Assembly (NCBI GenBank): GCA_964474705.1
Contig: CAYYUI010000002.1
Span: 5 to 64,004, forward strand
Direction: 5' to 3'
Length of the DNA: 64,000 nt
From: an uncultured bacterium
Lineage (GTDB): Bacteria > Muiribacteriota > Ozemobacteria > Ozemobacterales > Ozemobacteraceae
Below are positions 10,736 to 55,451 of this stretch, in pieces. The translations under genes were made by a program, and so were the position numbers. Numbering within the stretch: position 1 is the first letter of the stretch; every line of letters begins with the position of its first letter. The notes under the pieces are model-generated. The model had not been told where the DNA came from and did no database searches. It saw only the letters and a list, made by a program, of their open reading frames with translations.

Positions 10736-10896
10736 GATTGAATCAAGGCATTCATCCACCCATTTGTACCCTGTGCAAAATTGCTGCAGGCTGATAGTTG
10801 TCTGAATGCCGGCACTCGGGAAGCATCTTTTCCCACGGTGGCTCGGGCCGTTTTCCGGGCGCAGAGTATGAAGTAAAACTGGAAAGGGGACAAGTA

Positions 10897-14505: not shown

Positions 14506-15099
14506 TTATCGGCACCTTTGCGGCGTAGCAGGGAGATCTTCGAGTTGTTGCAATGCCTGCCGCAGCAGAGGGTCTGAAACAAGTTCCGCCTCATCGATAT
14601 TCAGTTTTGCAGCCAGTGCGGCAAGCAAACATTGGTAAAGCTGTTGGTGGGTAAGCGTCTGCATGCTGGGCTCTGCGCTCATATTACGAAGAACCGTTCT
14701 GGTTATTGTCGAGAATCGTGAATTGGCAAAGGTCAGAGCCAGGCCGCCGATTACCAGGCTGATTGCAATGAAGATGGCGAGGGTGATCAGGTCTTCTTTC
14801 GAATGGATGACCCAGGCGGCGGGAGCGGCAATCAACGTGGTGATCATTAGCAAAAGGTTCTGGGTTCGAAGAGACTTCTGCCTGTTGGTGATTATGGCGT
14901 TTACTGCGCTTTGCAATGCAGGATTGCCTTGAAAATCAGGGGCCGGAGTATCGTTCGGGTTATCTGCATCCGGTGAAGAAGCAGGATCACAAATGTCGAA
15001 GTCTCTGATGCAGTAAGGGCATCTGAGCAAGGTTCCGGTCATGTTATCAGGGACCGTAGTTTCTTTACCGCAAAACTGGCATTTTATCAGCCCTCTCAT
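14506..15099 (-). CDS. membrane protein with N-terminal zinc-ribbon
   Basis: N-terminal CQFCGKETTV...LRCPYCIRDF, then a Pro/Asp-rich linker and two TM helices. Confidence 0.5.
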   Translation of the reverse strand: MRGLIKCQFCGKETTVPDNMTGTLLRCPYCIRDFDICDPASSPDADNPNDTPAPDFQGNPALQSAVNAIITNRQKSLRTQNLLLMITTLIAAPAAWVIHSKEDLITLAIFIAISLVIGGLALTFANSRFSTITRTVLRNMSAEPSMQTLTHQQLYQCLLAALAAKLNIDEAELVSDPLLRQALQQLEDLPATPQRCR

Positions 15100-15423: not shown

Positions 15424-16059
15424 ATGGGAGAAAATATGACAAGAAAAGTTCTGTTTTTTTTGCTGTGTATCGTGACCGGAAGTGTTGCATCTTCTGCAAA
15501 CCCGGCCAGTCGCGCCGAAATGATAAAAAAATATGGCCCGGTTCCTTCTGCCATACTTGAACCATCTGAACGAAGCGACATAACTTCGTTTTATTCAATA
15601 TGTTGGACGGTCATGGAAAAACTGGGAAAGGCAAAGGTCCATCATCAGTACCGGGATAAAACATGCTTTGCCTGTCAGCGGGTATTGAAGGGTGCCATTG
15701 ATTTATATAATCAAGAACACGCTTCACCCGGACAACAGATCGGCAAAATCGACCACAAGGATGTCGTGGATGCAGACAATTCTCTCTACACCCAGAAATA
15801 TTTGAAGAGCGTTCCGCTGATGGCAGATTCAAAATGCCGGATGCACAGTTACGGAGATCTGGCAACAGATGGGATTATTTACTGCGAATATCACGGAACT
15901 GATCCGATGGTGGCAAAAGAACTTCGCGCCCTCAGTGGCTACACTCTAGCTTCCGAAATTCAGCTGCGCAGGCAAATTCTGATCGTCGTTGGAATATTGT
16001 TAGCGGTATTTCTGATGCTGTTCAGCTATTTTCGCGCCCGGGCCAATCGCGTGCAGTAA
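15424..16059 (+). CDS. secreted Cys-containing protein with C-terminal TM anchor
   Basis: Signal peptide (VLFFLLCIVTGSVASSA). C-terminal hydrophobic helix ILIVVGILLAVFLMLFSYF. Confidence 0.5.
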   Translation: MGENMTRKVLFFLLCIVTGSVASSANPASRAEMIKKYGPVPSAILEPSERSDITSFYSICWTVMEKLGKAKVHHQYRDKTCFACQRVLKGAIDLYNQEHASPGQQIGKIDHKDVVDADNSLYTQKYLKSVPLMADSKCRMHSYGDLATDGIIYCEYHGTDPMVAKELRALSGYTLASEIQLRRQILIVVGILLAVFLMLFSYFRARANRVQ

Positions 16060-16358: not shown

Positions 16359-16392
16359 TGTCATTTTGAAGAGTATGCCGGAGGAATTTGTT

Positions 16393-18882
16393 ATGGAAAA
16401 CTGGATCTTTTTGGGAATGTCTCCCGCTATTTTTGCTTCTTACCAAAAGCTTTATCGAAAAATGACTGCAAAAAATGAATTTGCCAGGCCTGATTCCCCG
16501 CAAATTAAATGCTTTAAAGCCTGCTTTCTTATGTGTATTTTTATTTTGATATCGTCTGCAAGCTTCTGTGAATATGCTGATTTTTCAAATTGGCATTTTC
16601 CAAGCCCGCCGCAACAAAGCATAGCCTGGAACCCTGGCGCAACGAATTTGTCTAATGAAGTGATTCTTGCCATGCGACAATTGTTTGAACTTGGTCTGGC
16701 CGACCCGCGCGGCTGTGAATACAAAACGGTTCAGGTAGAAACAGGCAGCGTATGGGCGCATTGCCCAATTATGATCACTACCAGAGGTTGGGTTCTTCCA
16801 GAATCGCCAAATTCAAAATGTTCTGAAAAATGGGTGATCTGCTGGAATGGGCTTTTGTATCCTGTGGCCTCAATGGGACCTTCGATAGACCTGGCTGCAG
16901 ACGTAGAAGAAATGCTGCAAAAGTCCATTGACTTGCCCGAAGATCGCAGAGACATAAGCGTTACCGGAAACATGAATACGGGAGTGACCACAAGATACCG
17001 TGACTTTAGATGTCATTCCATTCCCGAAAAATACGCCATCGATTACCATTTTTTAACACCATTGAAGGCGTTTCTTGTTTACCGGGCTGGTCATGAGAGT
17101 TTGGCGGAAAGAATGTGGCGAGAATATTATCGGTCATGTGATAACGTCGATGAATACCCATTGCTTCCAGTAATCATGGAATGGGTATGGTATCAGTGGG
17201 ATCGGGCAGTCTGTGCACATATGCGCGCCGATGATCGAATTGCATTGCTTACAGCCAGAAAGCTTCTACCAACTCTTAAGGTTGATGAAAGCGGCTGGAA
17301 AGATTGTCGACTTCCAAACTGGCGATTTGGCGGCGGATTGGATTGTTTTTCCAATCCCCGGTTTCTGACATTTGCAACTGGTTGTTCAATGCTTTTAATA
17401 GATCATGAAAGAAGATTGTGGGAAAAAACCATGAAGAATTTCTGGCATGCCGATCTGTGGAAAAAGATCAGCCAGAGTCTTAATCTTCCTTTGGGTGAAA
17501 CAGAACACTCTGAAGTTAAAACGCTGATCAAAAACCTTGAAAATGCACAGATCTGCCAAAGTGGACAACCGGGCTGGCTTGAGTTCGATCAGGCCGAAAC
17601 GGTTAGAAAATTGTCCGAAATTGGTGATGACGCAGTGGAGCCTCTGTTGCAAAGTCTTGAGACTGATGATCGCCTCTCCAGATCAGTATCATTCGGTCGC
17701 GACTTTCATTTCGATCGTAGTTTTTTACCAGTTTCAAGTCTTATTGATTACATCTTAAGTAGAATTTTAAGAACAAATCATAAGTTTCAAAAAGGCAGCA
17801 CAAAGCCTACCAGAAAAGAATATGTAGCCGCGATTCGTTCATACTGGCAGAAATTTAGAAATTGCTCAGTTCCCGAAAGAAGTTTCATAATACTGCAGGA
17901 TGACCATGCTTCAATAGGACAATGGGTAGAAAGTGCAAACGTTTTAACCAAAAGCGTCGATCAGGAGTTAGTTCCAAAAGGCTTTGGCTGGCAGACTGTT
18001 TATCAACCAAAGCCAGGACAACTGCCACCAATGACCGGCGAAAAATTTCGCACTGGTGTGACACCTACTCTGACAGAATTGCTTGAAAAAAGAAGTCAGC
18101 AACTTGCAACGATTATTCAAAATGGGGCTGAAAACCGTTATTCGGCAGAAGAAGCCTATCCCACCATTCTTTACGACAGATGCAAATGGGAACCGGAAAA
18201 AGTATCGCAGATTCTTGATGAATATGCTTCGACAACAAAAAACACAAGAGAAGCATGGGAACCAAACTCTGATTTCTGTCGAAAACTGAACTATATTTTT
18301 GAGATTAGCAAATTGGCCTGGAGAGCAGGCTATGAAGACGGCATTATCTGGACCGTTTCATACATTAGTTCGTTAAAATTTCATCCTGAACTGGCTGAAA
18401 CTATTACTGAGTTTTTTTCAAGCTGCGTTAAATCTAATATTGCAGAAAAATTTCTGAGGGAATCTATTGAAACAGGTAATAACCAATGGTCAGAATATTT
18501 TCGAGCCGATATCTGTCGCGACCTTAGTGTCTGGAGTAATTATTCCCGCTTAATGGTGGGACTATTTTCTCCTTTTTTCAGATATTGGCGTAGCTTATTC
18601 AGCATTTCCAAAATTGCTGGCCATATCAAGCCTCAATTTCTCCCCAGAACTTTTTATCGCGCCGAGGTTTCAATCGGTGAAAATCTAATTTATGTAAAAC
18701 GATATCAGGGCGATGATATTTTCTGGCCTAAGGAAGACACCACCGTCGAGTTCTCTATTGGCGATCTGCTTTGTCAGCTTGTGTGCGAACTTACTTACAC
18801 AGCAAAATTTAGAGTTTTTTGGCCTCAGCCCGTAAAGGAATTTGCAAGAAAACGTTGCTTTGATATCTGGTTTTGGGAATAA
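16393..18882 (+). CDS. large Trp/Cys-rich hypothetical protein with N-terminal signal/TM segment, encoded in a low-GC island
   Basis: Long ORF with GGAGGAA SD 8 nt before the ATG at 16393. GC content is visibly lower than in the flanks. One HEAT-like segment (AVEPLLQSLETDDRLSRSVSFG). No family recognised. Confidence 0.6.
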   Translation: MENWIFLGMSPAIFASYQKLYRKMTAKNEFARPDSPQIKCFKACFLMCIFILISSASFCEYADFSNWHFPSPPQQSIAWNPGATNLSNEVILAMRQLFELGLADPRGCEYKTVQVETGSVWAHCPIMITTRGWVLPESPNSKCSEKWVICWNGLLYPVASMGPSIDLAADVEEMLQKSIDLPEDRRDISVTGNMNTGVTTRYRDFRCHSIPEKYAIDYHFLTPLKAFLVYRAGHESLAERMWREYYRSCDNVDEYPLLPVIMEWVWYQWDRAVCAHMRADDRIALLTARKLLPTLKVDESGWKDCRLPNWRFGGGLDCFSNPRFLTFATGCSMLLIDHERRLWEKTMKNFWHADLWKKISQSLNLPLGETEHSEVKTLIKNLENAQICQSGQPGWLEFDQAETVRKLSEIGDDAVEPLLQSLETDDRLSRSVSFGRDFHFDRSFLPVSSLIDYILSRILRTNHKFQKGSTKPTRKEYVAAIRSYWQKFRNCSVPERSFIILQDDHASIGQWVESANVLTKSVDQELVPKGFGWQTVYQPKPGQLPPMTGEKFRTGVTPTLTELLEKRSQQLATIIQNGAENRYSAEEAYPTILYDRCKWEPEKVSQILDEYASTTKNTREAWEPNSDFCRKLNYIFEISKLAWRAGYEDGIIWTVSYISSLKFHPELAETITEFFSSCVKSNIAEKFLRESIETGNNQWSEYFRADICRDLSVWSNYSRLMVGLFSPFFRYWRSLFSISKIAGHIKPQFLPRTFYRAEVSIGENLIYVKRYQGDDIFWPKEDTTVEFSIGDLLCQLVCELTYTAKFRVFWPQPVKEFARKRCFDIWFWE

Positions 18883-19103: not shown

Positions 19104-19541
19104 ATGCAGGAGGATACTGTGATTAAAATACTGCTCCTAATTCTAATGGCGCTGCCTTGGCCGGCTAATGCAGAACCTGCGTCCGGTACGATTGCAGCCT
19201 CAGGATCTCAGACGATTGAACTTTCGATGCCTATGCTTCAGCAGGAGGGACCAGTGGTTAAATTTGTGATGAAAAAAATGCGGGTGCCTCATTGCAAACG
19301 GGGCCCACAGCGCTGTGAAATCTGCCGGATCGGGAATGTCGCGAAATGGTGTCTGCTCGACGTTGACCCGCCGGATCAGGACAGGGTGCAGCGCCCGGTA
19401 TTGGAATTCGTCTGTCAGGGCGAGCGTCTGATAAGGGTTTTTGATGTGCTGAAAAGTTTTGTTTCCAAGGAAGAGGCAGAAAAATTTCTTTCTGTGTCTG
19501 ATTATCCAGGTTTGATCTGGGATTCCGCTGAAGACAAATGA
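19104..19541 (+). CDS. secreted hypothetical protein
   Basis: Signal peptide ILLLILMALPWPANA. AGGAGGA SD precedes a GTG at 19119, which may be the true start. Confidence 0.45.
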   Translation: MQEDTVIKILLLILMALPWPANAEPASGTIAASGSQTIELSMPMLQQEGPVVKFVMKKMRVPHCKRGPQRCEICRIGNVAKWCLLDVDPPDQDRVQRPVLEFVCQGERLIRVFDVLKSFVSKEEAEKFLSVSDYPGLIWDSAEDK

Positions 19542-20378: not shown

Positions 20379-23267
20379 TCAGGCGGAAGGGTGGGTGGTA
20401 ATGGCGGCGACAGTGAGGTCGCAGTCGGAAGGGAACCCGGCCTGGGTGTACAGGCTCGTGAAGGTGGCGAGAAAGGCTTCGGCAGAAATGGCGGCTGAAG
20501 TCTGCAACAGGGCGTTGCCGCCCGCCCCTGAAACGACGAAATCTGCTGCGGGGGCATAGGTTGCCAGTATCAGAGCACAACCATCGTTGAGGTTGATGTG
20601 CAGTCCGGCTATCTTTTGCCCGTGGCCGGCCAGAGGCAGGGAAGGCATCGGCAGAAGGCGCACCGTGCCTGAGTTGCGGTCGATGAGAACCGGGTCGTTC
20701 ATCCCGGCATTGCTGATTTCCAGGCTGGTGTCGTCATGGCACAGTATATATTGCAGGCTGATTTCATGACCTTCTCGACCGGCATTGCTTCGCTGCAGCA
20801 GTTCGTTGAGCTCTTCCATGAAGCGTGCCGGCTGGTCGGTCAGGTCATGAAGCTGCATGGCAGCTGACTTGAGAAAAGCCAGCAGCAGGCAGCGGCTTAT
20901 GCCGGTGCCGCCGACGTTGCCCAGCAGCAGGGCGGGTCGATTGGCAGCGGTGCTGATCAATTCAAAATAGTCGCCACCATTTCCGGCCAGCGACAGGGTT
21001 TTGCCATAAATGCCCAGCCTGCCGGCCAGAAGCGGCTGAGCCATTCTGGTCATCAGCTTTTCCTGAACGATAGAAGCAACGTGCATTTCTTCGAGATCGC
21101 CGAGAATTTCGTTGAAAATACCAGCCAGAGAGCCGAATTCATCGCGGCCCAGGTCTGGCAGGCGATAGGAAAAATTGCGCTTCTGCAGCTCGCCGATGCC
21201 GGTTTGCAGCTCTGACAGCGGCAGTAAAATCCCTGATGACACCTTGAGCCCCAGGGAAACTGAGATTAACAGGCTGACCAGAGCCAGCAGCCAGATCATT
21301 CGACGTTTGGAGCCTATTTGGCTCTCTATCTGCCCGAGCGGATAGAGGGAAAACAGCCTGATAGTCGGCATATGTACGCATTTGTGGCCGGCGAGCATGA
21401 AGTTTTCGTTGTCTATGACACAGAATTCAGGACGGGTGAGAGTTCTGTTTCTGAGTTTGCCGGCGAATTCAGCAAGACGGGCATTCGCGAGCGTTTCCGG
21501 GGGAAAGGCAGTGCTGAACAGATCGTCGGCGGCCATGACTCTGATGCCGTCTTCATTGCGGTTCAGAGCGTGAAAGATGCGCCTGATGAATTCGAGTTCG
21601 AGTTTGCGGCTGTCCCAGACGTAGAGCATGATGTAGTCGAGCAGAGCCGGGTCGAACAGCGAGAAGGTCTCGATGTAGGTCGGGTGTCTGACCTGCCCGA
21701 TGCCCCAATGCCAGAAAGTGCCGCTCTCGTAAAACCTTCGGATCAGCTCGGCAGGCTTTTTCTGCATCAAGCCATCGGAAATGAATTCGACCTCGGCTCC
21801 CTGCTTTCCAGAAATCGGTGTTTTGTTGATGCTCGCCATGATAAATGTCGTCAGCTTGAAAATGGCATTCATGACGTTGGTTTTGACCGGTGAGGTTTTC
21901 AGGCGGCTGTCGAAGGCTTCCTGAATGACACCGTTTTTCATGATTCCGGTATCGCCGGCAATGATCCCGGTGCTGCTCGCTGCGATGAACAACATGTCCG
22001 GGCCAGGGCGTTGCGGGGTGACAAAATTACTGATCGTCTGCCGGTTTACGAGGTTATGCTGCAGGGCGGAGCGCAATTCGGGCAGAGCTCTGGTTATTCG
22101 GCCCTTCTGGACGCTGTATTCATTGTTGAAAAGCTCATCGATGTTCTGCATGCAGGTCATGCTGCGGTTGAACGCCCGGTTCAGCAGGCCGGCGCGGAGT
22201 TGTTGCAGATAGTCACTTCCTGAGACCAGCAGCAGAAAGCCGGGCAGAATGTTTGCGACCACAAAAAGCAGCACCAGCTGAGTTCGTAGGCCGAGCGAAA
22301 GTCTGACGCCGCCAGCCATTACCCGATAGCTCAAAACCGCATAATATACCAGGCATAGATGCAGAAAAACCATTATCAGTCTGGTGAATCCATCGCTGGC
22401 CGGCATGTCGATACTGCTTTTTCTGACGGCGCAGAAACCGGTGAGGCTTTCGTTGATGAAGTTGGTAAAAATGTAGTAATTGGGCAAATCCTGGCAGTCG
22501 CTGAAGCGATGCCGCATGGCCGCTAATCTCGTTTGCAGACTTGCGGCCAGTTCCGGGTCAGCGCAATAAGCCCGGTGGTCGGTCATATAGCCCGAATGCA
22601 GGTCACCACGATATGAATCTAGCATTTTGTCAAGCCCGGGTGTTCGTTTCAGCAGGCCGTAATCGAAGAACACCGCGAGGCCGAAGCGTTCGTCGACTTT
22701 CAGCCAGGTCAGCGGGTATTTCTGGGCCGAATCTGGCCTGATGAGGCTGAGTTCACGCCCTGAATAACAATTGCGGAAGAAAAGCGGAAAAAAGTGTGGC
22801 CCGAAAATCTGCCGCAGGTTTTTCATGACTTCCGGGGGGATATTTTTCTCGTAGTTCTGATAAAACCAGTCGGCAATGCGGCGAAGCTCAAGATAGGCCT
22901 GTTGCCAGTTTCCTGGATTCTGCCGCCAGGAAAAATTGGCCTGATAAATCTCCCCGGATGGCTGCCAGATCAGATAGCGCATTTTCAGCCGGTGCTGTTT
23001 CCCATAGTCGTCGATGGCAGTTCTGAGAGCGGCGCTATTCTGGCTTTCTCTGAAAATTGCATCGAGACTGCTGCAGGTATATTTTTCCGTATCAGCTAGA
23101 GCCCGCATCGTTGCCAGCATTTCATCGGCAGCCGCGGCAAAATTTCTGAAGCGTGTCTCGCGGTCGAGCGTCGCCAGATAATAACCGCCCGCCCAGAAGA
23201 TCAGCAGAGGCAGAAGAACGGTTGCGCCGGCAAGCCTGAGCCAGGCGGTAATGTTTCTGTCAGGCAT
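20379..23267 (-). CDS. membrane sensor phosphatase: periplasmic domain, HAMP, PP2C (SpoIIE/RsbU-type)
   Basis: N-terminal TM, a ~290-aa extracytoplasmic region, a second TM and a HAMP-like linker (LSELQTGIGELQKRNFSYRLPDLGRDEFGSLAGIFNEIL). The C-terminal PP2C domain has GGDYFELI...GNVGGTGIS and a C-terminal DG motif. Confidence 0.8.
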   Translation of the reverse strand: MPDRNITAWLRLAGATVLLPLLIFWAGGYYLATLDRETRFRNFAAAADEMLATMRALADTEKYTCSSLDAIFRESQNSAALRTAIDDYGKQHRLKMRYLIWQPSGEIYQANFSWRQNPGNWQQAYLELRRIADWFYQNYEKNIPPEVMKNLRQIFGPHFFPLFFRNCYSGRELSLIRPDSAQKYPLTWLKVDERFGLAVFFDYGLLKRTPGLDKMLDSYRGDLHSGYMTDHRAYCADPELAASLQTRLAAMRHRFSDCQDLPNYYIFTNFINESLTGFCAVRKSSIDMPASDGFTRLIMVFLHLCLVYYAVLSYRVMAGGVRLSLGLRTQLVLLFVVANILPGFLLLVSGSDYLQQLRAGLLNRAFNRSMTCMQNIDELFNNEYSVQKGRITRALPELRSALQHNLVNRQTISNFVTPQRPGPDMLFIAASSTGIIAGDTGIMKNGVIQEAFDSRLKTSPVKTNVMNAIFKLTTFIMASINKTPISGKQGAEVEFISDGLMQKKPAELIRRFYESGTFWHWGIGQVRHPTYIETFSLFDPALLDYIMLYVWDSRKLELEFIRRIFHALNRNEDGIRVMAADDLFSTAFPPETLANARLAEFAGKLRNRTLTRPEFCVIDNENFMLAGHKCVHMPTIRLFSLYPLGQIESQIGSKRRMIWLLALVSLLISVSLGLKVSSGILLPLSELQTGIGELQKRNFSYRLPDLGRDEFGSLAGIFNEILGDLEEMHVASIVQEKLMTRMAQPLLAGRLGIYGKTLSLAGNGGDYFELISTAANRPALLLGNVGGTGISRCLLLAFLKSAAMQLHDLTDQPARFMEELNELLQRSNAGREGHEISLQYILCHDDTSLEISNAGMNDPVLIDRNSGTVRLLPMPSLPLAGHGQKIAGLHINLNDGCALILATYAPAADFVVSGAGGNALLQTSAAISAEAFLATFTSLYTQAGFPSDCDLTVAAITTHPSA

Positions 23268-26163
23268 CTGAACTGTCCTCCATGCGCAGCATCAGGAAAG
23301 TCAGATCGTCGTCGCGCCTGTCGGTCCAGGCCTTGTGACCTTCGAGAATCCTGCTCCAGTAGGTTTCGAGATCGGCGTGCCAGGCATCGGCAACCATTTT
23401 GAGAAACCTCGGGTAACCCAGCATTTCGCCTGATGGTGCCATTGCCTCGACAATTCCATCGGTATAGAGAATAAGCGTGGCGCCTGGAAGCAGGGCCAGG
23501 GTTTGTTCGACGGCCCGGTTCTTCGTTGAGCTCCCGAGCGGAAACCCATGAATTTCAATGAGTCGGGGGGCATTGCCGCCAGGCCCGATCATTACCGGGT
23601 AGCAATGCCCGGCATTGGCGATTTTGAATGCGCCGCTGCTGCAGTCGAAATCAAGGCACTGAGCGGTCATCATGCGTCGCCAGTCTTTCTTTTTCAATTC
23701 GTTCAGCACGCAGCTGCCACGGTGCAGCACTTCCGCTGGTCCGGGAAAGTCTCTGGAAACGCCTGCAATCATGGCTTTCATCATCGCCATGATCATCGCT
23801 GCCGGAATGCCGTGCCCGGCAACGTCTCCGAAGAAAATTGCCATTCTGTCGTTTGGCAGATCAAAGTAATCATAATAGTCACCACCCATTTTGCTCATAA
23901 ACAGGGAGCGCGCAAAAAGGCTGATCTTGCCGCGGCAGTGATGTTCCGGTGGTAAAAGACTGACTTGAACCGCAGTGCCGACTGCGAGCTCACGCATACC
24001 TTCGACGGTGGTGTTGAAAGCTTCGGTCAGCCGGCCAAGCTCATCGTTGCTTAACGAAGGAACGCGGATAGAATAATCACGTTTTCTCACCTTTTCTATA
24101 CCGGTTGCCAGAGATTCAACCGGTGCCAGCAGCCTGTGTGAAAACAGTATGACCGTCTGCCTGAGGATGATGACGACCAGCAGAAAACCTATACCGATTG
24201 CAAGTTTCAGTCTGAAGATCTGTTGCTCGATTATGGCTTCGGGGTAGAGTGCGACGAGAACTCCCATGCCGATTTCGTTGCCGGCAATCGAGGTGAAGAG
24301 ATAGTTCTTTCCGTCGAGGGCAACGCGTTCGCCGGCAATCATTTTTCGACTGCGGGTCAGGCGCATTAATCTGTTGATCTGCGGGTTGTTGATCTGTGTC
24401 GTCGAGAAAATCTTTTCAGAGTCATTGTCCATGACCGCAAGAATTCGTGGTTTAACCTCTTCAGAGGCTTGTGTGAGACTTGCGCTGATAAAATCTCTTA
24501 GAAAAGTGGCTCTTTCCCATGACAGGAGGAGAATACCCCAGATTTGCCCCTGTTGCTGGGCTCCGGTGAATTTCACGTAAGTCAGGCGTTCACTGTTGCC
24601 GCTGCTCATGAGCGAAAAACGGTCGACGGCCCCGAGGAAGAAATACAGTGATTTGTCGATACTCGAAACCTGTTCCAGTATCGAGGATTGCCCCTTTTTG
24701 CCGGCAGTTTCACCTTTACCTCCGAAGAATAGCAGGGCGTTCTGCATCAGAGAAAGTCCCATCTTCGAGGCACGGTTCGTCGTCTTGGCCATGTAGAAAG
24801 TGTAATTGCCCTCTGGTTCGGCCAGACCGCCTTCTTCCGGGCCTATTTCTGCGACCAGAGCCTGCAGGGCTTCTATTTCCGCATCAGGCCAACGTTTGCC
24901 GCCATATTTTTTGTTTCGTGCATCGATAAAAGCATTCAGACGATCTGCCAGAACCGCTGAGGTCTCCGGAAACCTGACGTCGAATTCCTTTAAAATGCGC
25001 AGGGATTCCTGGTGGGCGGCGTTGAAAAGTTCATCGCGTTTTTCATGAAAGAACTCGTAGCCGGCCGAAATCATCAGCCCAAGGGGCAGACCATTCGAGA
25101 AGATGAAGAGCAGCAACATTTTCTGGCGCACCGAAAGACACCATTCCGGGTGGCGCAGCAGATAGCAGTGCCAGACAAATAATGCCAGCATCAGCGCGAT
25201 GCTTATTCTTCCCAGCATGCGGGCCGAAAGATTATGAGGATCTGGTAAAAAAGTTGCCGGAAGGTAACTGATTAGAATCAGATCAGGAGAAGCCTGCCGG
25301 ATATTGAGCAGATAGTTCCGGCTTTGCCGCTGCGATTGCCCATCTGCCTCGTATTTTTTTACTTCCAGCATGATTTCGGACTGATGGGTGGTTGCAGCAG
25401 GCATGCCGAAACCTTGATAGGAAAGAGTCTTTACAAAAGCGAGGCGTTCAGGTTCAGCGGTTGCGGCTGCCTGTCGAACCATCGATTTTGGGCCGAGATG
25501 CCTGCCGGTCAGGGCAGCATCGAGAAAGCAGGCAAGCGAAAAATTGCTGCCCGGGTAATACCAGAGCAATTTTTGACCTGGTTCGAGGCTGACTGAGAGA
25601 CATTTTCCTTTGGCGCCGGGGCGCAGCGGCTCAAAAAGCTGGTTTTCGAAGAGAAACTGGCCGAAATAACCGCGCAACAGATTCATTTTTTCGACGATCT
25701 TCTGAATGTCGGCCGGATTGGCTGTTTCATCGACTTTAAAAGCATCTGCGAGCATGTGCATGACCTGAAACATGCTTTTCATGACAAACTGAAAACGTTT
25801 TTCGTCACTCAGATTTCTGTTGATGGAACCATCGCTGTTCCAGACGATGAATCTGATTCTGTCGGAAAAAAAACTGCGAACAGCGGCGACTTTCTCGATA
25901 AGTGCCTGCTCAGGGCCTGCCGACCTATCGGCGAGGGTGAAGTTTTTTTGCAGCAATGCATGAAAAAATGCCAGGTCATCATGGTATCTTGCAAAGCGGT
26001 CCAGCTTGATATTCAGGCGATAATGGGCATTTTCGACCGCCTGCTGATACGCGGCGCCAAAAGTTCCGGAAAGAAACAGCCACAAAAGATATAGTGGCAA
26101 AAGCAGCCCCAGCAGCAGCTGAGTAAGCTTGAATCCAATGATGCCGGCAAAGTTTCTGATCAA
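23260..26163 (-). CDS. membrane sensor phosphatase paralogue: periplasmic domain, HAMP, PP2C (SpoIIE/RsbU-type)
   Basis: Same architecture as the downstream gene: HAMP (LATGIEKVRKRDYSIRVPSLSNDELGRLTEAFNTTVEGM) and PP2C (GGDYYDYFDL...FFGDVAGHGIPAAM...YTDGIVEA). Overlaps the downstream paralogue by 8 nt. Confidence 0.8.
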   Translation of the reverse strand: MIRNFAGIIGFKLTQLLLGLLLPLYLLWLFLSGTFGAAYQQAVENAHYRLNIKLDRFARYHDDLAFFHALLQKNFTLADRSAGPEQALIEKVAAVRSFFSDRIRFIVWNSDGSINRNLSDEKRFQFVMKSMFQVMHMLADAFKVDETANPADIQKIVEKMNLLRGYFGQFLFENQLFEPLRPGAKGKCLSVSLEPGQKLLWYYPGSNFSLACFLDAALTGRHLGPKSMVRQAAATAEPERLAFVKTLSYQGFGMPAATTHQSEIMLEVKKYEADGQSQRQSRNYLLNIRQASPDLILISYLPATFLPDPHNLSARMLGRISIALMLALFVWHCYLLRHPEWCLSVRQKMLLLFIFSNGLPLGLMISAGYEFFHEKRDELFNAAHQESLRILKEFDVRFPETSAVLADRLNAFIDARNKKYGGKRWPDAEIEALQALVAEIGPEEGGLAEPEGNYTFYMAKTTNRASKMGLSLMQNALLFFGGKGETAGKKGQSSILEQVSSIDKSLYFFLGAVDRFSLMSSGNSERLTYVKFTGAQQQGQIWGILLLSWERATFLRDFISASLTQASEEVKPRILAVMDNDSEKIFSTTQINNPQINRLMRLTRSRKMIAGERVALDGKNYLFTSIAGNEIGMGVLVALYPEAIIEQQIFRLKLAIGIGFLLVVIILRQTVILFSHRLLAPVESLATGIEKVRKRDYSIRVPSLSNDELGRLTEAFNTTVEGMRELAVGTAVQVSLLPPEHHCRGKISLFARSLFMSKMGGDYYDYFDLPNDRMAIFFGDVAGHGIPAAMIMAMMKAMIAGVSRDFPGPAEVLHRGSCVLNELKKKDWRRMMTAQCLDFDCSSGAFKIANAGHCYPVMIGPGGNAPRLIEIHGFPLGSSTKNRAVEQTLALLPGATLILYTDGIVEAMAPSGEMLGYPRFLKMVADAWHADLETYWSRILEGHKAWTDRRDDDLTFLMLRMEDSSDA

Positions 26164-26311
26164 GCTTGTTTCCTTGTCAGGAACAGCCGGCTGTTTTTAT
26201 GGTCAGCCAGAAGCGATTTTGCAAGTGATCTCCTCGGGAAATGCTGTTTATGGTGCGAACATCGATGTATCAATAATATCAGATTCATCTTCTTTTGTGA
26301 GTTTGCCGCGG

Positions 26312-28063
26312 CTAAAACTTGAACAGGTTTTTCAGGCCTTTTTTGAGGGGGTCTTCTTTTTTGACCGGGGCGGTGTTGGTGGCGGGGGCCAGGTTGTCAC
26401 CAGATGATTTCTTCTTTTTGAAAATGTTCTGAAGATCGCCGAGAATGCCTTTGTTCTTTTTCTGCTGGCCGGAATCAGGGGATTTTGCACCGGGGTTGAT
26501 CATGTCCTGCAGGAGTTTCTGGCCCTGCTTTTTCAAGCCAAATTCAAGCAGACCACCGAGACTGAAACCCGGAAATACAGGCGCCAGAAGCGAGCCTTCA
26601 ACTGTGGTGGGAATTGCCGCGGAAACTCCGTCTGTCGATATCTGCCGCAGGATATCGCTCTTTCTGACCGCAGCCGCAGCAAAACGCAATTCGAGTCGGC
26701 CCTGCAGCGAAGTATCCAGGCCGATATTGCCGCGATAGAAAGCCAGACCGGCCGCGGTGCTGGCGGCAAGGTCGCTGGTCGTAAGAATGCCTTTGTCGAG
26801 AACGAAAGTGCCGCTGGCATCCTGCAGATCGCCAGATGAAAATTCTGCCAGATTGGCAATCTTCAGAAATGGCGAGATGACAGGGGGAGTCTGGTATCTG
26901 CCATTCTGCATCCGGAGATTGCCCTTGCCGTTAAGAGAATTGAGACCGGTCACATCGCCGGAAGCCATGAGGTTGGCGTCGATCGGACCTGAGATTGCCT
27001 GCTGCTGAGTGCTGTTCTGGGCCAGAAAATTTTCGGCCTGAATGCCGCTGCCGGCAGCTTCAAACTCGAAACGCAGCGGCACTTTGTCGGTAAAGACGGT
27101 GCCATCGCCGGAAATTGTACCGCCAAACAGGCTGGTTCTGGCGTTTTCGACTGAGAGCTTGCCGCCGGAAAAGCGTACCGGAGCTACCATATTTGTAAAA
27201 GGAAAAGCAAAAGTGCTTGAACTGCCTGATGCCAGCGCAACTTCAATTTTTCCTGAGGCGGCGAGAATATTGCCGACGATTACCAGGCGGTCAAATTGAC
27301 CTTTGGCGCTCAGGCCGGCTGAGACATTCTGCATGCTCAGCTTTTTATCGGGAATATTGCAGTTGCCGTCGGCGAGTTTCAGATCGATGGTGGTATCAGG
27401 GTTGCGTAGATTGCCGGCAAGGACGAGGGCGAGAGAACAGGAAGCCGATATTTCCGGGGGGGTGCTGGAATTTTTTCTGGAAGTATCGATCATAATCCGG
27501 CCGGCCAGGTTGGCGCGGACTTCTTTGCTGTCTGAAGTTCGGTTGATACTGGTGGCCGGGATTTCCATGACCGACTGCATTCCCGAATCAGCATCGATGA
27601 TGCTGAGATTCAAGTTGAGAACTTTGATCTGACTGAATGGCAGGTCAGCCGGGTGAAGCGGCTGACTGGCTGAAGCCGTCTGCCTTTTCTTACCGCCTGC
27701 CTGTTCAGGCTGCCTTTTGATTGGTAGTCTGGCCTTGCATGATTCGATGCTGATTTCCTTGAGCACGAGATTACCGCCCATCAGGCTCATAAAATCGCAG
27801 GTTGCCGAGAGACTGCCGATGGTGGCAGAAACCTGCTGCGGGTCAGCAGGGTTGCCGATATTGATACCGGTCAGGTGGACGGTTGAATAATCCATGCGGT
27901 AGTCTTTAACCGAGACCGGCATGCCGGCGAGTTTTGATACCATCTGTTCAAACTGCTTCCTGAGCCCCGCATCCCCGGCCGCGGATGCTTCAAGGCAAAC
28001 CGCAATGAACAGTGTCATTATGATTACCACTATGATTCGATTGCCTCTCATTATTCTGGCCAT
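26312..28063 (-). CDS. AsmA-family-like outer-membrane assembly protein
   Basis: N-terminal TM anchor followed by a long beta-rich region with AsmA-like N-terminal motifs. Lys-rich C-terminal tail. Confidence 0.5.
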   Translation of the reverse strand: MARIMRGNRIIVVIIMTLFIAVCLEASAAGDAGLRKQFEQMVSKLAGMPVSVKDYRMDYSTVHLTGINIGNPADPQQVSATIGSLSATCDFMSLMGGNLVLKEISIESCKARLPIKRQPEQAGGKKRQTASASQPLHPADLPFSQIKVLNLNLSIIDADSGMQSVMEIPATSINRTSDSKEVRANLAGRIMIDTSRKNSSTPPEISASCSLALVLAGNLRNPDTTIDLKLADGNCNIPDKKLSMQNVSAGLSAKGQFDRLVIVGNILAASGKIEVALASGSSSTFAFPFTNMVAPVRFSGGKLSVENARTSLFGGTISGDGTVFTDKVPLRFEFEAAGSGIQAENFLAQNSTQQQAISGPIDANLMASGDVTGLNSLNGKGNLRMQNGRYQTPPVISPFLKIANLAEFSSGDLQDASGTFVLDKGILTTSDLAASTAAGLAFYRGNIGLDTSLQGRLELRFAAAAVRKSDILRQISTDGVSAAIPTTVEGSLLAPVFPGFSLGGLLEFGLKKQGQKLLQDMINPGAKSPDSGQQKKNKGILGDLQNIFKKKKSSGDNLAPATNTAPVKKEDPLKKGLKNLFKF

Positions 28064-28306
28064 CAGTTCACCTCGCGAAAATTATTTCTCATCACTCAAA
28101 ATCTAATCCTTTCAGCCCAATGCGTCCACCATATTTTCCTGCGGCTGAACTTTCGAAAAGGCTGGCAATTTTCATCAAAATGCGTGATAATATTGTTGTG
28201 CAAAAATTCACAAACATGAAGCGGGAACTGTTGAAATGACATGCTCTGTCTGAATTGGTCGCGACTGGGCGACACCCGCAGTTGAAATGAAAGGTTGGAA
28301 AAGATA

Positions 28307-29512
28307 ATGCAGGCAACACCCCGTGGAATACGGCCTCATATAGCAATTTTCGGCCGGCGTAATGTGGGCAAGTCATCGTTGATCAATGCTCTGACCGACC
28401 AGGAGATAGCCCTGGTTTCAGCAACAGCCGGAACCACTGCTGATCCGGTTTACAAGAATATTGAACTGCTGCCTTTTGGCCCGGTGGTGCTTATCGATAC
28501 CGCCGGTCTCGACGATGTCGGAGATCTTGGTCGGCTCAGAGTCGAAGCCACCCTCAAGGTCATGAAAAAGACCGATCTGGCCCTGGTGGTGCTCGAACCG
28601 ACCGCAGGTCTTCATGCAACCGAAAAAGAACTGCTCGAGATGCTGAAGAAGCAGAAGGTGGCGTTTCTGACGGTCATGAACAAGTGCGAAACCGGCCCGG
28701 TTCCGCAGAGTCTCAAAGATGAAGTGGCCGCTTTCGGCGCTGAAATAATTCCGGTCAGTACAACGACCCGCGCCGGCATTCTCGAACTCAGATCGATTAA
28801 GATGCAGGAAGGCCTCAAAGGCTTCGATTCAGGAGTCATTCTCGGAGATCTTATCGCGCCGCGCGAAGTGGTGATACTGGTGACGCCGATCGATATTTCC
28901 GCTCCGAAAGGTCGATTGATTCTTCCACAGGTGCAGGCTTTGCGCGATCTTCTCGATGCCGATGCCATAACTCTGGTCGTCAAGGAAACCGAACTGAAGC
29001 CGGCTCTTGCGGTTTTGAGCCGGCCACCAGCTCTGGTGGTGACCGATTCGCAGGTGTTTTTCAAAGTGGCGGCCGATCTGCCTCCCGGTATTCCGTTCAC
29101 GAGCTTTTCGGTGGTATTCGCCCGCTACAAGGGCGACCTCAACGCTTATGTCGAAGGAGTAGCCGCTTTAAAGAAAAAGGGCGGTAATGCCCGGATTCTG
29201 ATTGCCGAGTCATGCACCCACCACCAGATGGAAGACGATATCGGCCGGGTCAAGATTCCGAAATGGGTCAGGCAGAAATACGGCGAAAGTGTGCAGTTCG
29301 ATTTCTGTCAGGGCGTCAGTTTTCCTGACGATCTGAAAAAGTATGATCTGGTCGTGCAATGCGGCGGCTGCATGACCAACCGTCGCGATATCATGGCTCG
29401 CATCGATGCCTGCCGGGCTGTCGGTGTGCCGATAACCAATTACGGTATTCTGATCGGGCATCTGCACGGAGTTCTCGAACAGGCATTGAAGCCTTTCAAC
29501 ATCAATCTGTAA
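28307..29512 (+). CDS. hydF: [FeFe]-hydrogenase H-cluster maturation GTPase HydF
   Basis: N-terminal GTPase (G1 GRRNVGKSSL, G3 DTAGLDD, NKCE). C-terminal HydF cluster-binding motifs ESCTHHQ...CGGC. The track's TTG at 28295 is upstream; the ATG at 28307 follows an AAAGG SD. Confidence 0.85.
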   Translation: MQATPRGIRPHIAIFGRRNVGKSSLINALTDQEIALVSATAGTTADPVYKNIELLPFGPVVLIDTAGLDDVGDLGRLRVEATLKVMKKTDLALVVLEPTAGLHATEKELLEMLKKQKVAFLTVMNKCETGPVPQSLKDEVAAFGAEIIPVSTTTRAGILELRSIKMQEGLKGFDSGVILGDLIAPREVVILVTPIDISAPKGRLILPQVQALRDLLDADAITLVVKETELKPALAVLSRPPALVVTDSQVFFKVAADLPPGIPFTSFSVVFARYKGDLNAYVEGVAALKKKGGNARILIAESCTHHQMEDDIGRVKIPKWVRQKYGESVQFDFCQGVSFPDDLKKYDLVVQCGGCMTNRRDIMARIDACRAVGVPITNYGILIGHLHGVLEQALKPFNINL

Positions 29513-30653: not shown

Positions 30654-33600
30654 TTATGACTCCTGCAGATTATGGCTGGTCAGGGTCTCTCCGTGCAGGG
30701 TTATCGAGCCCTGATCAGATTTGACACAGCCGGTGATTTCGACTACCGAGGAATGGTCGAGCAGCTGGCGGCATTTTTCCCAGGCGCGCGGGAACATTAC
30801 CACCTCGATCAGCCCGGTGCGATCTTCGAGGGTTAAAAATTTCATTCTTTCGTTTCTGGAAGTGGTAACCGACTTGGCCGCTATGAGCAGGCCGTAGATT
30901 TTGACCTTCTTTCCTGTCATGGTCGGCAGTTTTTCCGCCGGGCAGAAATTTATCGGTGGTTTAATGAGTTCAAGCGGGTGACCGGAAACGCTGAAACCCA
31001 TGGAACGGATCTCGGCTGCGATATTTTCAGCGCGCGTTTCCGTTTTCATTGCCATTGGAGGCAGGGCAGGGGAGGGTTCGCTGAACAGACTGCCTGTGTT
31101 CGTCAGTTTTGCCTGCCAGCGGAGAGCGGCTCTGGAACCGAAACAGTGCAGGGCGCCGCTGTCGGTCATGGCTTCTAGCTCGTCGGCAGCAGGTCTGGTT
31201 CTGGCGATGAAATCGGCAAACGAGGCAAAAGCCGTCTTACTTCGTTCGGAAATGATTCGGGCGATGGTTGCCTGTTTGAGCCCGTTGATGAAACCAAGAC
31301 CTGTGAGAATCTGCCCGTTTTTCCAGGTGAATTCTGTCTCGCTGTGGCTGATTTCAGGTGGCAATGTCTGCAGGCCAAGGCGGCGGGCTTCGGAAATATA
31401 AGCCTGCAGTCCGTAGAAACCGCCGCGATTGTTGATTACCGCTGCCATGAAGGGCCCGGGAAAATGCACCTTGAACCAGAGAAGTTCCATTGACAGAACC
31501 GCGTAGGCGGCGCTGTGTGCCTTGCAGAAAGCATAGCCGCAGAAACTGTCGATCTGACGCCAGATTTCGCCTGCAGTTGCAGCTGGAATGTTTCTGACGG
31601 CAGCTCCGTCGAGAAATCGCTGCCTGGTTGCCGCCATCCGGTCATGACTGCGTTCCTTACCGCTCATGGCGCGGCGCAGCACATCGGCTTCCGCAAGAGA
31701 AAAGCCGGCGATATGGTGGGCAACCTTCATGACGTCTTCCTGGTAGACCATGACTCCATATGTTTCGGCAAGCAGTTCTCCCATTATCGGGTGAAGGGGT
31801 TGCCAGCTGCCATGATGATGACGCCTGATGTATTCCTGCATCATGCCGCTTTCGGCCACGCCAGGTCTGATTATCGAACTGGCGGCCACCAGGCCGAGGT
31901 AGGTTCTGCAGCCAAGTTTTTGCAGCAGACCGCGCATGCCGGGTGATTCAATATAGAAAACTCCCATCGTTCGCCCGTCAGCGAGTGCCGAGGCAATCTG
32001 CGGGTCATTTTCTATCAGTTCAGGATCTGACGGTGGCATCGTGATTGCAGGAGCGCAGCCCGAGAATCGACCGCTTCCAGTTGATATTTCGGAACGATCG
32101 TCGGAGTTTGCTGCCGCTGCCAGGTCAGAATAGACGCCAAGCGACCGCTGCGAAAGCAGGTCCAGTTTTACGAGACCGAATCTCTCGATGCCGCGCATTT
32201 CCAGCTGAGTAATCGGCAGAGCTTTGCTCGATGGCATGGTGGGTGTGAATTCATGTATGCTGCCAGGCGCAATAACGATGCCGCCGGCATGAATGGAAAA
32301 ATGGGTTGGAATGCCCTCGATCTGCGCTGCGAGTTTGAACAGCGGGTTGAGGATTTTCCTGCGCTCGTCTGGCATTTTGAAGCGGGCCCCTCGCTCCGGA
32401 TCTGCAAGAAACTGTGCCAGAGAAGAATGCCCGATAAGCGCGGTCGCGGCGTCGAGGTCGGCCTTTTTTATTCCGAGAGTTTTGCCGGTTTCGCGCAGGG
32501 CGGCCCGACCGCGCAGACTGATGTGAGTGCAGATCATGGCAACCTTGTCACTGCCCCAGCGTTCGAGAAGATGCTGGTAGATCTGGTCGCGGATGCGCCA
32601 TGAAAAATCGAGATCGACATCGGGCGGTGATTTTCTGGCTGAATTGAGAAACCGTTCGAAGTAGAGGTTGTATTTGAGCGGGTCTACCTGGGTAAAATCA
32701 AGTGCATAGCTGATCAGACTGTTGGCGGCCGAACCGCGGCCGAGCACCCGGTGGCCGAGTTCGCGCGCCTTGATGGTGATGTCGTTGACGACGAGAAAAT
32801 AGTCAGCGAAGCCAAGCTTTTCGATGACTTCGAGTTCACCGGCAAAGCGGTTCTCTATTTCTGAATTCAGCTTGCCGTAACGGCGTTGCAGGCCCTCGGA
32901 AGCCAACTGGCGCAACAGGCGCACCGATTCGGCACTGTTTGGGCAGAATTGCGGCATATGCAACCTGCCTTCGCCTGGAATCCAGGTCGGTTGTGAGCAG
33001 AATTTCCGGTTTTCAGCTGCGGCTTCCGGGAAGCGGGCGGCCATATCGGCGCATCTTTTCAACTCAACCGGCATTGCCGATTCTTCAGTCGGAACATCAT
33101 TCAACAGGGCCCCGGAATCAATAGCTCTTATCAGGCGGTTCAGGCTGAGATCGTCGGTTGTGGTCGCGGTCAGATGGGGGGCGATGATCATCGGCAGGTT
33201 ATGGTGACGGGCAAGAGAAGCTGTTTCCTCATGTCTGGCGAGCGAAAGGCTGTCTTCAAGAGCGAGAAAGCACTTCCAGCCGGTGGAGATCAGAAGGGCG
33301 GTAAGCTCCCGGTCGATATGGCCGCCGATAACGATTCGCCCGCTTCCCTTTATTTTGAGCCAGATGGCAGGATCGGGACTGAAACCGGCTGTTTGTCCCC
33401 GCAGGTGGTGGTAGTGCGAAATGGAAGCGTTCAGGCTGGTAAAGGCCTGGTGATCGTCGGGATAAAACCTCAGGCTGGTTCGGCCGGCCGTTACGCAGGA
33501 GACGCCGACAAGAAGAGATAATTCGAGGTTTTGGGTAGCGGAAAGGGCTTCTGGAAGCCCTGCCAGCGACATTATGTCGGTAAGCGGCAGGGTGGCGAGT

Positions 33601-33698
33601 CCCGCGGTCTTCAAGGCTGCAGCCATTTTTGCGGGAGTGACCGCCCCATGGCCAAAACTGTAGCAGCTCGAAAAAGATATTGGACTAATCAGAATCAT
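30654..33698 (-). CDS. dnaE2: DNA polymerase III alpha-subunit family, DnaE2/ImuC-like (error-prone type) with degenerate PHP domain
   Basis: 1014 aa, which is shorter than replicative DnaE1. Polymerase core motifs are present (GYAFCKAHSAAYAVLSMELLWFKVHFPGPFMAAV). The N-terminal PHP metal ligands are replaced (ISPISFSSCYSFGHG instead of HxHSxYS), as in ImuC. Confidence 0.7.
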   Translation of the reverse strand: MILISPISFSSCYSFGHGAVTPAKMAAALKTAGLATLPLTDIMSLAGLPEALSATQNLELSLLVGVSCVTAGRTSLRFYPDDHQAFTSLNASISHYHHLRGQTAGFSPDPAIWLKIKGSGRIVIGGHIDRELTALLISTGWKCFLALEDSLSLARHEETASLARHHNLPMIIAPHLTATTTDDLSLNRLIRAIDSGALLNDVPTEESAMPVELKRCADMAARFPEAAAENRKFCSQPTWIPGEGRLHMPQFCPNSAESVRLLRQLASEGLQRRYGKLNSEIENRFAGELEVIEKLGFADYFLVVNDITIKARELGHRVLGRGSAANSLISYALDFTQVDPLKYNLYFERFLNSARKSPPDVDLDFSWRIRDQIYQHLLERWGSDKVAMICTHISLRGRAALRETGKTLGIKKADLDAATALIGHSSLAQFLADPERGARFKMPDERRKILNPLFKLAAQIEGIPTHFSIHAGGIVIAPGSIHEFTPTMPSSKALPITQLEMRGIERFGLVKLDLLSQRSLGVYSDLAAAANSDDRSEISTGSGRFSGCAPAITMPPSDPELIENDPQIASALADGRTMGVFYIESPGMRGLLQKLGCRTYLGLVAASSIIRPGVAESGMMQEYIRRHHHGSWQPLHPIMGELLAETYGVMVYQEDVMKVAHHIAGFSLAEADVLRRAMSGKERSHDRMAATRQRFLDGAAVRNIPAATAGEIWRQIDSFCGYAFCKAHSAAYAVLSMELLWFKVHFPGPFMAAVINNRGGFYGLQAYISEARRLGLQTLPPEISHSETEFTWKNGQILTGLGFINGLKQATIARIISERSKTAFASFADFIARTRPAADELEAMTDSGALHCFGSRAALRWQAKLTNTGSLFSEPSPALPPMAMKTETRAENIAAEIRSMGFSVSGHPLELIKPPINFCPAEKLPTMTGKKVKIYGLLIAAKSVTTSRNERMKFLTLEDRTGLIEVVMFPRAWEKCRQLLDHSSVVEITGCVKSDQGSITLHGETLTSHNLQES

Positions 33699-51657: not shown

Positions 51658-51843
51658 TCAGTCCTTTGCGAAGTAAAGCTGTTTGAGGATCATGTAGTCC
51701 TGGCACATGTAGGCGAGATCCCAGCCGTTGCGGCCGGCTTCGTCAAGTAATGAACCGAGGCGTTCAAGAAATTCGGGGCCCTGCATTGGTGTGAGATCGA
51801 GGGTTTTATAATTCCAGCGCTGTGGTGATTTTTCAAGCATCAT
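51658..51843 (-). CDS. small DUF4177-like protein
   Basis: 61 aa with W(N)YKTL...LGSLLDEAGRNGWDL, resembling the DUF4177 WEYK...GWEL pattern. This is an inference from a remembered family profile. Confidence 0.4.
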   Translation of the reverse strand: MMLEKSPQRWNYKTLDLTPMQGPEFLERLGSLLDEAGRNGWDLAYMCQDYMILKQLYFAKD

Positions 51844-54220: not shown

Positions 54221-54328
54221 CGGTTTTCCCCGGCAAATAAGGCTTCAGCAGAAATTTTAGCAGAAACGCGAACAAATTAGAATACTGCAAACATTAAGAA
54301 AAGTTAAAGCAAATTTTATTTTGTTTGG

Positions 54329-54357: not shown

Positions 54358-54364
54358 GACTGAC

Positions 54365-55438: not shown

Positions 55439-55451
55439 CGGGGTAACCAGC

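Follow-up and report, generated by a model that had tools for sequence, protein, structure and literature searches.

An overlapping pair of sensor-HAMP-PP2C paralogues, a predicted phosphatase and a predicted pseudophosphatase, in an uncultured bacterium of the Ozemobacteraceae

In many bacteria, general-stress and biofilm responses begin with sensor-linked phosphatases of the PP2C type, and how a membrane signal is transferred to the catalytic domain of these enzymes is only now being clarified. Two adjacent minus-strand genes, P1 and P2, raise this question for a pair of such proteins. They lie on a stretch of 64,000 nucleotides (nt) from an uncultured bacterium of the Ozemobacteraceae (assembly GCA_964474705.1, contig CAYYUI010000002.1), the whole of which is called the window here. 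An earlier description made from the sequence alone, hereafter the sequence-only reading, had taken both gene products for membrane-bound sensor phosphatases. Are both proteins enzymes, and what might a pair of them do together? Our analysis predicts an active phosphatase for the upstream gene, P1, and a conserved pseudophosphatase for the downstream gene, P2, and we lean towards the view that the two proteins are subunits of one receptor.

The two phosphatase sites

The two open reading frames (ORFs), each described earlier as about 965 amino acids (aa) long, were confirmed at the positions and on the strand given before, and encode 967 aa (P1) and 962 aa (P2). The TGA of P1 and the ATG of P2 share 8 nt (ATGCCTGA, 23260-23267), and a Shine-Dalgarno sequence, GGAGGA, is located within P1, 8 nt 5' of the P2 ATG. 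The overlap supports the proposed coupling of the genes. BLASTP aligned P1 and P2 collinearly from end to end (E=3e-30, 22% identity, 945 columns), which upholds their paralogy; over the whole length the identity is about 19-22%. In the family alignment, HAMP was 37.5% and PP2C 19.5% identical between P1 and P2, as compared to 16.5% and 15.5% for the first and second extracytoplasmic domains (ECD1 and ECD2), the divergence of which had been noticed before. P1 and P2 are two complete paralogues. A single frameshifted ORF, which would have contradicted the sequence-only reading, is ruled out, as each protein has its own N-terminal transmembrane (TM) helix, a complete architecture and full-length orthologues.

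Homologues of the two proteins form two separate, full-length orthologue sets with 37-80% identity across Riflebacteria, which we term T1 (P1 type) and T2 (P2 type). The named sources are nearly all Candidatus Riflebacteria/Rifleibacteriota; two entries are labelled Erysipelotrichia.

P1 matched the Pfam family SpoIIE (PF07228) with 138 bits over profile positions 2-191 of 192 (cut-off 25). Its metal-ligand motifs are GGD762, GDVAGHG780, YTDG902 and DDDLT951-953, with the aspartates (Asp) D762, D780, D902 and D951-953. These motifs align with GGD, GDVxGHG, TDG and DDxT of Rv1364c, Pseudomonas aeruginosa RssB and SiaA, and the Asp spacing agrees with that of the four essential Asp of chlamydial RsbU (PMC4552016). 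All four motif Asp are kept in every T1 orthologue with a residue at the respective columns (30-32 of 32). Two AlphaFold2 models were used, one of full-length P1 and one of residues 1-672. In the Foldseek search with the full-length model, the PP2C domain dominated the match list. The model matched 3KE6, 3F79 and 6K4E at TM-scores (TMt) of 0.53-0.81, and for the PP2C fold 3F79, 6K4E and 3PU9 were matched at 0.77-0.81. Conservation within T1 peaks in the linker and the PP2C domain, with a mean pairwise identity of 65.5% and 60.5%, respectively, and the majority residue of the catalytic motifs occurs at a frequency of 0.82-0.88. With all metal ligands present, P1 is predicted to be catalytically competent.

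The picture for P2 is the reverse. Its SpoIIE match is partial (39.9 bits against the cut-off of 25, profile positions 4-130 of 192), and its motifs read GGDYFE, GNVGGTG in place of GDVAGHG, LATYAP in place of YTDG, and DCDLT. The motif II Asp is thus an Asn (GNV), and the motif III Asp is absent (ATYA). The same trend runs through the Riflebacteria T2 orthologues: none of the 29 has the motif III Asp, which is replaced by G, S, A, Y, N or P; the motif II Asp occurs in 8/29, at a position that varies between D, T, H, R, N, E and S; and the motif IV Asp is found in 20/29. At the GGD position, 23 of the 29 carry D and six carry E. Several T2 orthologues fall below SpoIIE detection altogether.

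These data bear on whether T2 might still be active through a non-canonical metal site or another catalytic arrangement, so that the pair would consist of two enzymes with different sensors. P2 does score above the SpoIIE gathering threshold and retains the GGD Asp as well as a DxDLT-like last motif. However, the residue that replaces the invariably missing motif III Asp is not conserved, motif II is variable, and several orthologues no longer score as SpoIIE. Moreover, the four Asp are reported to be essential for PP2C-like activity, and the chlamydial paralogue CT589 is reported to lack essential residues (PMC4552016). We consider an active T2 very improbable.

Outside the catalytic site, T2 is well kept. 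TM4 plus HAMP show the highest mean pairwise identity of T2 (69.6%) and PP2C the lowest of its domains (33.1%), while ECD1, the TM2-TM3 hairpin and ECD2 share 42-53% among orthologues. The majority-residue frequency amounts to 0.79-0.87 in the HAMP connector, AS2 and the linker and to 0.73 in PP2C helix alpha1, as compared to 0.30-0.45 in the C-terminal half of PP2C. The constraint pattern is therefore inverted between the two types, with PP2C among the two most conserved regions in T1 and at the bottom in T2. Since the motif III Asp is lost in 29/29 orthologues while the sensor, HAMP and linker regions are kept, we predict that T2, including P2, is a conserved pseudophosphatase, that is, a member of the PP2C fold family and not an active enzyme. 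Judged by this pattern, it is a maintained protein that has abandoned catalysis, not a decaying gene.

The earlier description had called both proteins phosphatases and had named missing metal-ligand Asp as an argument to the contrary; such Asp are missing from the downstream protein, P2, and not from P1. Its statement that the metal-binding motifs are shared holds for P1, with all four Asp, and fails for P2, where the pattern 'G[DN]V.G.G' had masked the GNV and the TDG Asp is lacking. HAMP and SpoIIE were confirmed in both proteins above the Pfam gathering scores. In annotation pipelines, T1 and T2 genes alike receive the label 'SpoIIE family protein phosphatase' or 'HAMP domain-containing protein'; T2 should not count as an enzyme.

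Conservation and history of the gene pair

A T1 gene followed by a T2 gene, with an overlap of 4-17 nt, was found in 18/18 pairs at 13 loci with differing flanking genes. Nine of these loci carry a single pair (the window, L005, L006, L007, L008, L010, L012, L016 and L017), three carry two pairs in the order T1-T2-T1-T2 (L001, L003 and L014), and L015 carries three. The strict alternation in the multi-copy loci indicates that whole pairs, not single genes, were duplicated.

A profile of the N-terminal region retrieved at least 436 clusters at 50% identity, 288 of them at E<=1e-10, and nearly all full-length matches measure 950-1000 aa. This near-uniform length and the number of clusters indicate a fixed architecture and a sizeable family. 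One metagenomic representative (P0207, 1415 aa) has about 460 extra N-terminal residues, with the profile match at 460-1097. A scan of genome contigs returned close Ozemobacteraceae-type relatives only, and a literature search for Riflebacteria in combination with phosphatase revealed nothing relevant.

Among 124 full-length representatives, 70 are T1-like; 69 of these have all four Asp and one is degenerate. Of the 50 T2-like representatives, 31 are intact; the 19 degenerate ones are those nearest to the Riflebacteria T2 set. In the distant metagenomic loci L015-L017, T2 is predicted to be catalytically intact, as GGD, GDVAGHG and TDG are kept. Thus, the pairing would be older, and the catalytic loss in T2 a later, lineage-specific event. 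The split between T1 and T2 itself is older than the divergence of L015-L017. On this comparative evidence, the T1-T2 pair appears as an old, widely conserved two-gene unit, in place of the local duplication that the sequence-only reading had implied.

A recent local tandem duplication, the second copy of which drifts towards a pseudogene with no joint function, would leave adjacent paralogues with a degenerate active site in the second, as seen here. It would not be expected to yield P1-P2 identities of only about 19-22%, a separate full-length orthologue set for each type (37-80% identity across Riflebacteria), strongly conserved sensor and HAMP regions in T2 and a T1/T2 split that antedates the divergence of L015-L017. 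Nor were frequent truncations or frameshifts seen in the T2 orthologues. We give this explanation almost no credence.

Membrane topology and a possible heteromeric receptor

The sequence-only reading had described each protein as one TM helix, an extracytoplasmic domain of about 290 aa, a second TM helix and HAMP. This layout omits about 330 residues. According to hydropathy, and for P1 also to AlphaFold2, both proteins contain four TM helices and a pair of extracytoplasmic domains of about 280 aa each, in the order TM1, ECD1, TM2, a short positively charged loop, TM3, ECD2, TM4, HAMP, helical linker and PP2C. The hydrophobic segments span approximately residues 13-31, 312-335, 349-367 and 649-672 in P1 and 10-34, 294-312, 331-349 and 658-680 in P2. 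Long helices of the AlphaFold2 models coincide with the P1 segments (mean pLDDT 82.7 in the full-length model and 82.8 in that of residues 1-672). The N-terminus and the TM2-TM3 loop have a net positive charge; in P1, the loop LRHPEWCLSVRQK contains three K+R versus one D+E, consistent with the cytoplasmic side. This charge distribution fits an N-terminus in the cytoplasm, both ECDs outside, and HAMP, linker and PP2C in the cytoplasm. A match to HAMP (PF00672, cut-off 25) directly follows the end of TM4, which falls near residue 672 in P1 and near residue 680 in P2; the match covers residues 673-724 of P1 (39.9 bits) and 680-726 of P2 (31.4 bits). The coordinates of all parts are compiled in Table 1.

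Table 1. Coordinates of the P1-P2 gene pair, its junction, the protein regions it encodes and a promoter-like match
Feature	Residues	Positions	Strand	Basis or remark
P1 gene (type T1)		23260-26163	(-)	967 aa, TTG start; sensor-HAMP-PP2C phosphatase, predicted to be catalytically competent
P2 gene (type T2)		20379-23267	(-)	962 aa, ATG start; P1-like architecture with degenerate PP2C (predicted pseudophosphatase)
P1/P2 junction		23260-23281	(-)	GGAGGA at 23276-23281, 8-nt spacer, P2 ATG overlapping the P1 stop; read from the sequence
P1 ECD1	35-310	25234-26061	(-)	Between TM1 (13-31) and TM2 (312-335)
P1 TM2-cytoplasmic loop-TM3 hairpin	311-368	25060-25233	(-)	Hydropathy peaks 312-335 and 349-367
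P1 ECD2, probably a dCache-like module	369-648	24220-25059	(-)	Foldseek, model of residues 1-672
P1 TM4 and HAMP	649-672 and 673-728	23980-24219	(-)	Hydropathy; Pfam HAMP 673-724
P1 helical linker and PP2C	729-755 and 756-962	23278-23979	(-)	Most conserved parts of T1; motif alignment
P2 ECD1, TM2-TM3 hairpin and ECD2	35-293, 294-350 and 351-656	21300-23165	(-)	Hydropathy; collinear with P1
P2 TM4, HAMP and linker helix	657-760	20988-21299	(-)	Most conserved part of T2
P2 degenerate PP2C-like domain	761-958	20394-20987	(-)	Least conserved domain of T2
Weak sigma-70-like promoter match		26273-26301	(-)	CTCACA, 17 nt, TATTAT, with TG; in the 148-nt gap 5' of P1

The sequence-only reading had proposed a profile search for Cache or other families in the extracytoplasmic regions. 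Residues 1 to about 650 gave no sequence match in Pfam, NCBIfam or the PDB, and no Cache family was found in Pfam at E<=0.1; P1 ECD1, viewed separately, likewise matched nothing in Pfam or among PDB sequences. In the AlphaFold2 models, P1 ECD1 consists of a long helix followed by two alpha/beta modules, a pattern of secondary structure that is compatible with both ECD1 and ECD2. With the model of residues 1-672, Foldseek returned dCache domains with a probability of 1.0 over 270-300 columns, at a TMt of 0.35-0.48 and a root-mean-square deviation of 8-12 A. The matches comprised Tlp3 (4XMR/6W3O), 3LIF, McpH (8BMV), Mlp37 (5AVE), PctA/B and KinD (4JGO). Thus, at least one extracytoplasmic domain of P1 is probably dCache-like, at moderate TM-scores. 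The McpB model 9A65_B aligned to the P1 models across 360-422 columns, and this length suggests that ECD2, TM4 and HAMP form the part that would match McpB. An internal duplication as the origin of ECD1 and ECD2 found no sequence support, since hhalign of the two profiles gave a probability of 0.2%.

HAMP domains act as parallel dimers forming a four-helix bundle. Phosphatases of the RsbU class of PPM enzymes, HAMP-linked ones included, have been described as dimers in which crossing helical linkers and an alpha0-alpha2 interface control activity (PMC12143880). We favour, with modest confidence, the reading that P1 and P2 are two subunits of one heteromeric transmembrane receptor phosphatase with a single catalytic subunit. 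The overlap of the T1 and T2 genes would lead to translational coupling and hence to equimolar co-translation. The two chains would then pair via the TM bundle, the HAMP four-helix bundle and crossing linker helices. Ligands bound to up to four different extracytoplasmic modules would alter the conformation of HAMP and linker, and this change, passed on via the alpha0-alpha2 dimer interface, would turn the sole active site, that of T1, on or off; the dead domain of T2 would act as the allosteric partner of T1. A phosphorylated partner-switch protein, STAS-type or other, whose gene lies elsewhere in the genome would be the probable substrate.

Four lines of evidence argue for such a heteromer: the order and overlap of T1 and T2 in 18/18 pairs, together with the duplication of whole pairs; the asymmetric decay of the catalytic site, kept in T1 and lost in the T2 of Riflebacteria; the constraint on T2, which sits in HAMP, linker and alpha1 and not in the C-terminal half of PP2C; and the dimer mechanism of the RsbU class (PMC12143880) along with the active and dead paralogues of Chlamydia (PMC4552016). 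The sequence-only reading had suggested one sensor domain per protein and different ligands feeding one output. Several inputs with one output remain plausible, and more so because only one subunit can be catalytic; the notion of one sensor domain each does not hold.

The same gene pair could also encode two separate homodimeric receptors, of which T1 would be the phosphatase and T2 a substrate trap, scaffold or competitor that binds the phospho-substrate, or some other partner, without catalysis; the common operon would only match their amounts. Both proteins are full-length with a self-sufficient architecture, and the intact enzymes of the distant loci suggest that each could act alone. The D (23/29) or E (6/29) at the GGD position of T2 might allow some binding of phosphate or substrate to persist, and Escherichia coli RssB is a precedent for a non-catalytic adaptor derived from PP2C (PMC12143880). 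However, the strict order and overlap in 18/18 pairs and the duplication of pairs only exceed what co-regulation needs. Furthermore, the conservation of T2 lies in elements of dimerization and allostery (HAMP, linker, alpha1), whereas the majority-residue frequency of the substrate-facing C-terminal half is just 0.30-0.45. Two homodimers therefore seem rather unlikely to us.

Several points weigh against the heteromeric receptor. The heterodimer of T1 and T2 is itself an inference. In distant relatives both subunits are predicted to be catalytically intact, so the pairing is independent of one dead site, and it could mean that two homodimers, each on its own, are merely regulated together. For the dCache assignment, the TM-scores are moderate (0.35-0.48) and apply to the region 1-672 as a whole. 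At none of the loci examined was a substrate, kinase or STAS gene linked to the pair. Finally, the promoter and the operon limits of P1-P2 are putative; the promoter and terminator scan gave 8 promoter-like matches versus 6.1 in shuffled sequence, which is no excess, and the match in the gap 5' of P1 serves as a pointer only.

A more specific form of the heteromeric reading can be advanced tentatively, and we would not yet bet on it: an obligate heterodimeric HAMP receptor that integrates four extracytoplasmic modules into one catalytic site and that evolved from a form with two active sites, as in the distant metagenomic lineages, to a form with one active site and an allosteric pseudophosphatase subunit, as in Riflebacteria. 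If true, this would be the first natural asymmetric heterodimeric sensor-PP2C and a model for the role of CT589 in Chlamydia.

The family offers a receptor layout new to testing, in which every protein has four TM helices and, one after the other, two domains outside the membrane, and its T1-T2 unit is fixed such that it behaves like two chains of one protein. It also provides what looks like a natural evolutionary series: both chains are predicted enzymes in some lineages, and elsewhere one chain has no active site while its sensor and transmission parts are kept. This makes a question testable, namely whether one active site suffices in a PP2C dimer, with the dead subunit as an allosteric switch, and it can equally be asked of the uncharacterised RsbU-like protein of Chlamydia. 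As a natural test case, the pair is of value mainly for the study of asymmetric signalling by PP2C dimers.

Neighbouring genes and known systems

For partner genes, 50 of the 54 non-overlapping ORFs in the window with a length of 80 aa or more were scanned with Pfam. In agreement with the sequence-only reading, which had seen no adjacent STAS, anti-sigma/RsbW or kinase partner, none of the 50 encodes a STAS protein, an RsbW-type/HATPase_c_2 kinase or a Ser/Thr (Hanks) kinase. Beside the related T1-T2 pairs, too, no STAS, kinase or SiaB/C/D-like gene was present, and the 50 ORFs likewise include no SiaB/C/D-like gene. In the window, an AsmA-like gene lies upstream of the pair and a TauE gene downstream. 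As conserved operon partners these were rejected, since they are common only to a relative with approximately 80-87% identity and the other loci are flanked differently. The AsmA-like gene (26312-28063 (-), 583 aa, 148 nt 5' of P1, with weak AsmA/YhdP/DUF748/TamB-like N-terminal matches) is found next to the pair in the closest relative alone (L009, 87% identity).

Directly beside the pairs at six loci, in at least four flank contexts, there are small genes with redox or oxygen-defence functions; none lies beside the pair in the window. They encode rubredoxin (L001 1828-1986, L003 1307-1465, L014 3856-4014), rubrerythrin (L015 6298-6888, L016 13209-13712) and a Ferric_reduct/FAD/NAD protein (L017 5539-6897); in Rifleibacterium-like loci, a CheW gene joins them. 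These neighbours may point to a role related to redox or O2, or they may merely mirror the gene content of anaerobes.

Downstream of the pair, a block of ORFs encodes proteins of 838 aa (16366-18882 (+)), 145 aa (19104-19541 (+)), 211 aa (15424-16059 (+)) and 197 aa (14506-15099 (-)). None of the four matched Pfam, and the 838- and 145-aa ORFs had no NCBIfam match either; all four are also called on the public contig of the source genome (L011). Elsewhere in the window we observed a gingipain-like Peptidase_C25 with a propeptide domain (10798-12717 (+), 639 aa), a HydF [FeFe]-hydrogenase maturation GTPase (28295-29512 (+)), beside which HydE/G were not detected, and, near HydF, a DnaE-like polymerase of 1014 aa whose PHP domain match is weak (30654-33698 (-)). 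Two adjoining genes for T2SSE-type secretion/pilus ATPases (54329-55438 and 55359-56489 (+)) are located within 51833-58633 and are bracketed by very large HEAT-plus-TPR repeat proteins of 795 aa (-) and 715 aa (+).

How does the pair compare with known systems? With the dCache domains of Tlp3, PctA/B, Mlp24/37 and KinD, its sensor regions would share a long N-terminal helix and two alpha/beta modules, as modelled for P1, along with the position between TM helices and the HAMP domain that follows. P1 and P2 differ in having two domains of such a size in series, with a TM hairpin between them.

The class of Bacillus subtilis RsbU and P. aeruginosa RssB has the SpoIIE-family PP2C fold, the GGD, GDVxGHG, TDG and DDxT motifs and a helical linker into the domain in common with P1, and the RssB structures 3F79, 3EQ2 and 3F7A are top fold matches to P1. 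Members of this class, however, are soluble homodimers under the control of a partner protein or a receiver domain, whereas P1 and P2 take their input from a double extracytoplasmic sensor with four TM helices, followed by HAMP, and the dimer proposed here would be heterodimeric with one dead site. The adjacent STAS gene and RsbW/SpoIIAB-type kinase gene of an RsbU-RsbV-RsbW partner-switching module were not found among the 50 window ORFs or at the related loci.

SiaA, from the SiaABCD module of P. aeruginosa, resembles P1 as a membrane sensor with HAMP and a PP2C output. Its PP2C structure, 6K4E, ranks among the best in both the sequence and the fold comparison with P1, and SiaA is the best NCBIfam match. 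SiaA differs in being encoded by a single gene, without a pair of active and pseudo forms, and in having another sensor region. Equivalence with SiaA was rejected, as the score against the equivalog model (NF038263) was 54 bits versus a cut-off of 700 and no siaB/C/D-like genes occur in the 50 window ORFs or the related loci.

The closest analogue, by its published description, would be Chlamydia trachomatis RsbU (CT588) with its paralogue CT589/CTL0852. Both are inner-membrane paralogues that combine a sensor domain in the periplasm with a PP2C-like domain in the cytoplasm; RsbU, which is active on RsbV1, retains the four Asp that coordinate Mn2+, and in CT589 the metal-coordinating residues are missing (PMC4552016). 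CT589 was still called uncharacterised in a 2026 review (PMC13463777). As in P1 and P2, there are two membrane sensor-PP2C paralogues, one of them without metal ligands. The partner-switch substrates of the chlamydial system are encoded away from the phosphatase genes, as would probably hold for P1 and P2. Unlike P1 and P2, with their four TM helices and two ECDs, the chlamydial proteins, as described, have one periplasmic domain. Furthermore, the P1/P2 type forms an overlapping unit that is duplicated as a unit and has relatives in which both members are intact. Sensor-HAMP-PP2C phosphatases and an active/dead paralogue pair, that of Chlamydia, are thus known already. The pair described here differs from RsbU/CT589 and from SiaA in its sensor with four TM helices and two ECDs, in its strict overlapping unit and in its occurrence in active/active and active/dead versions.

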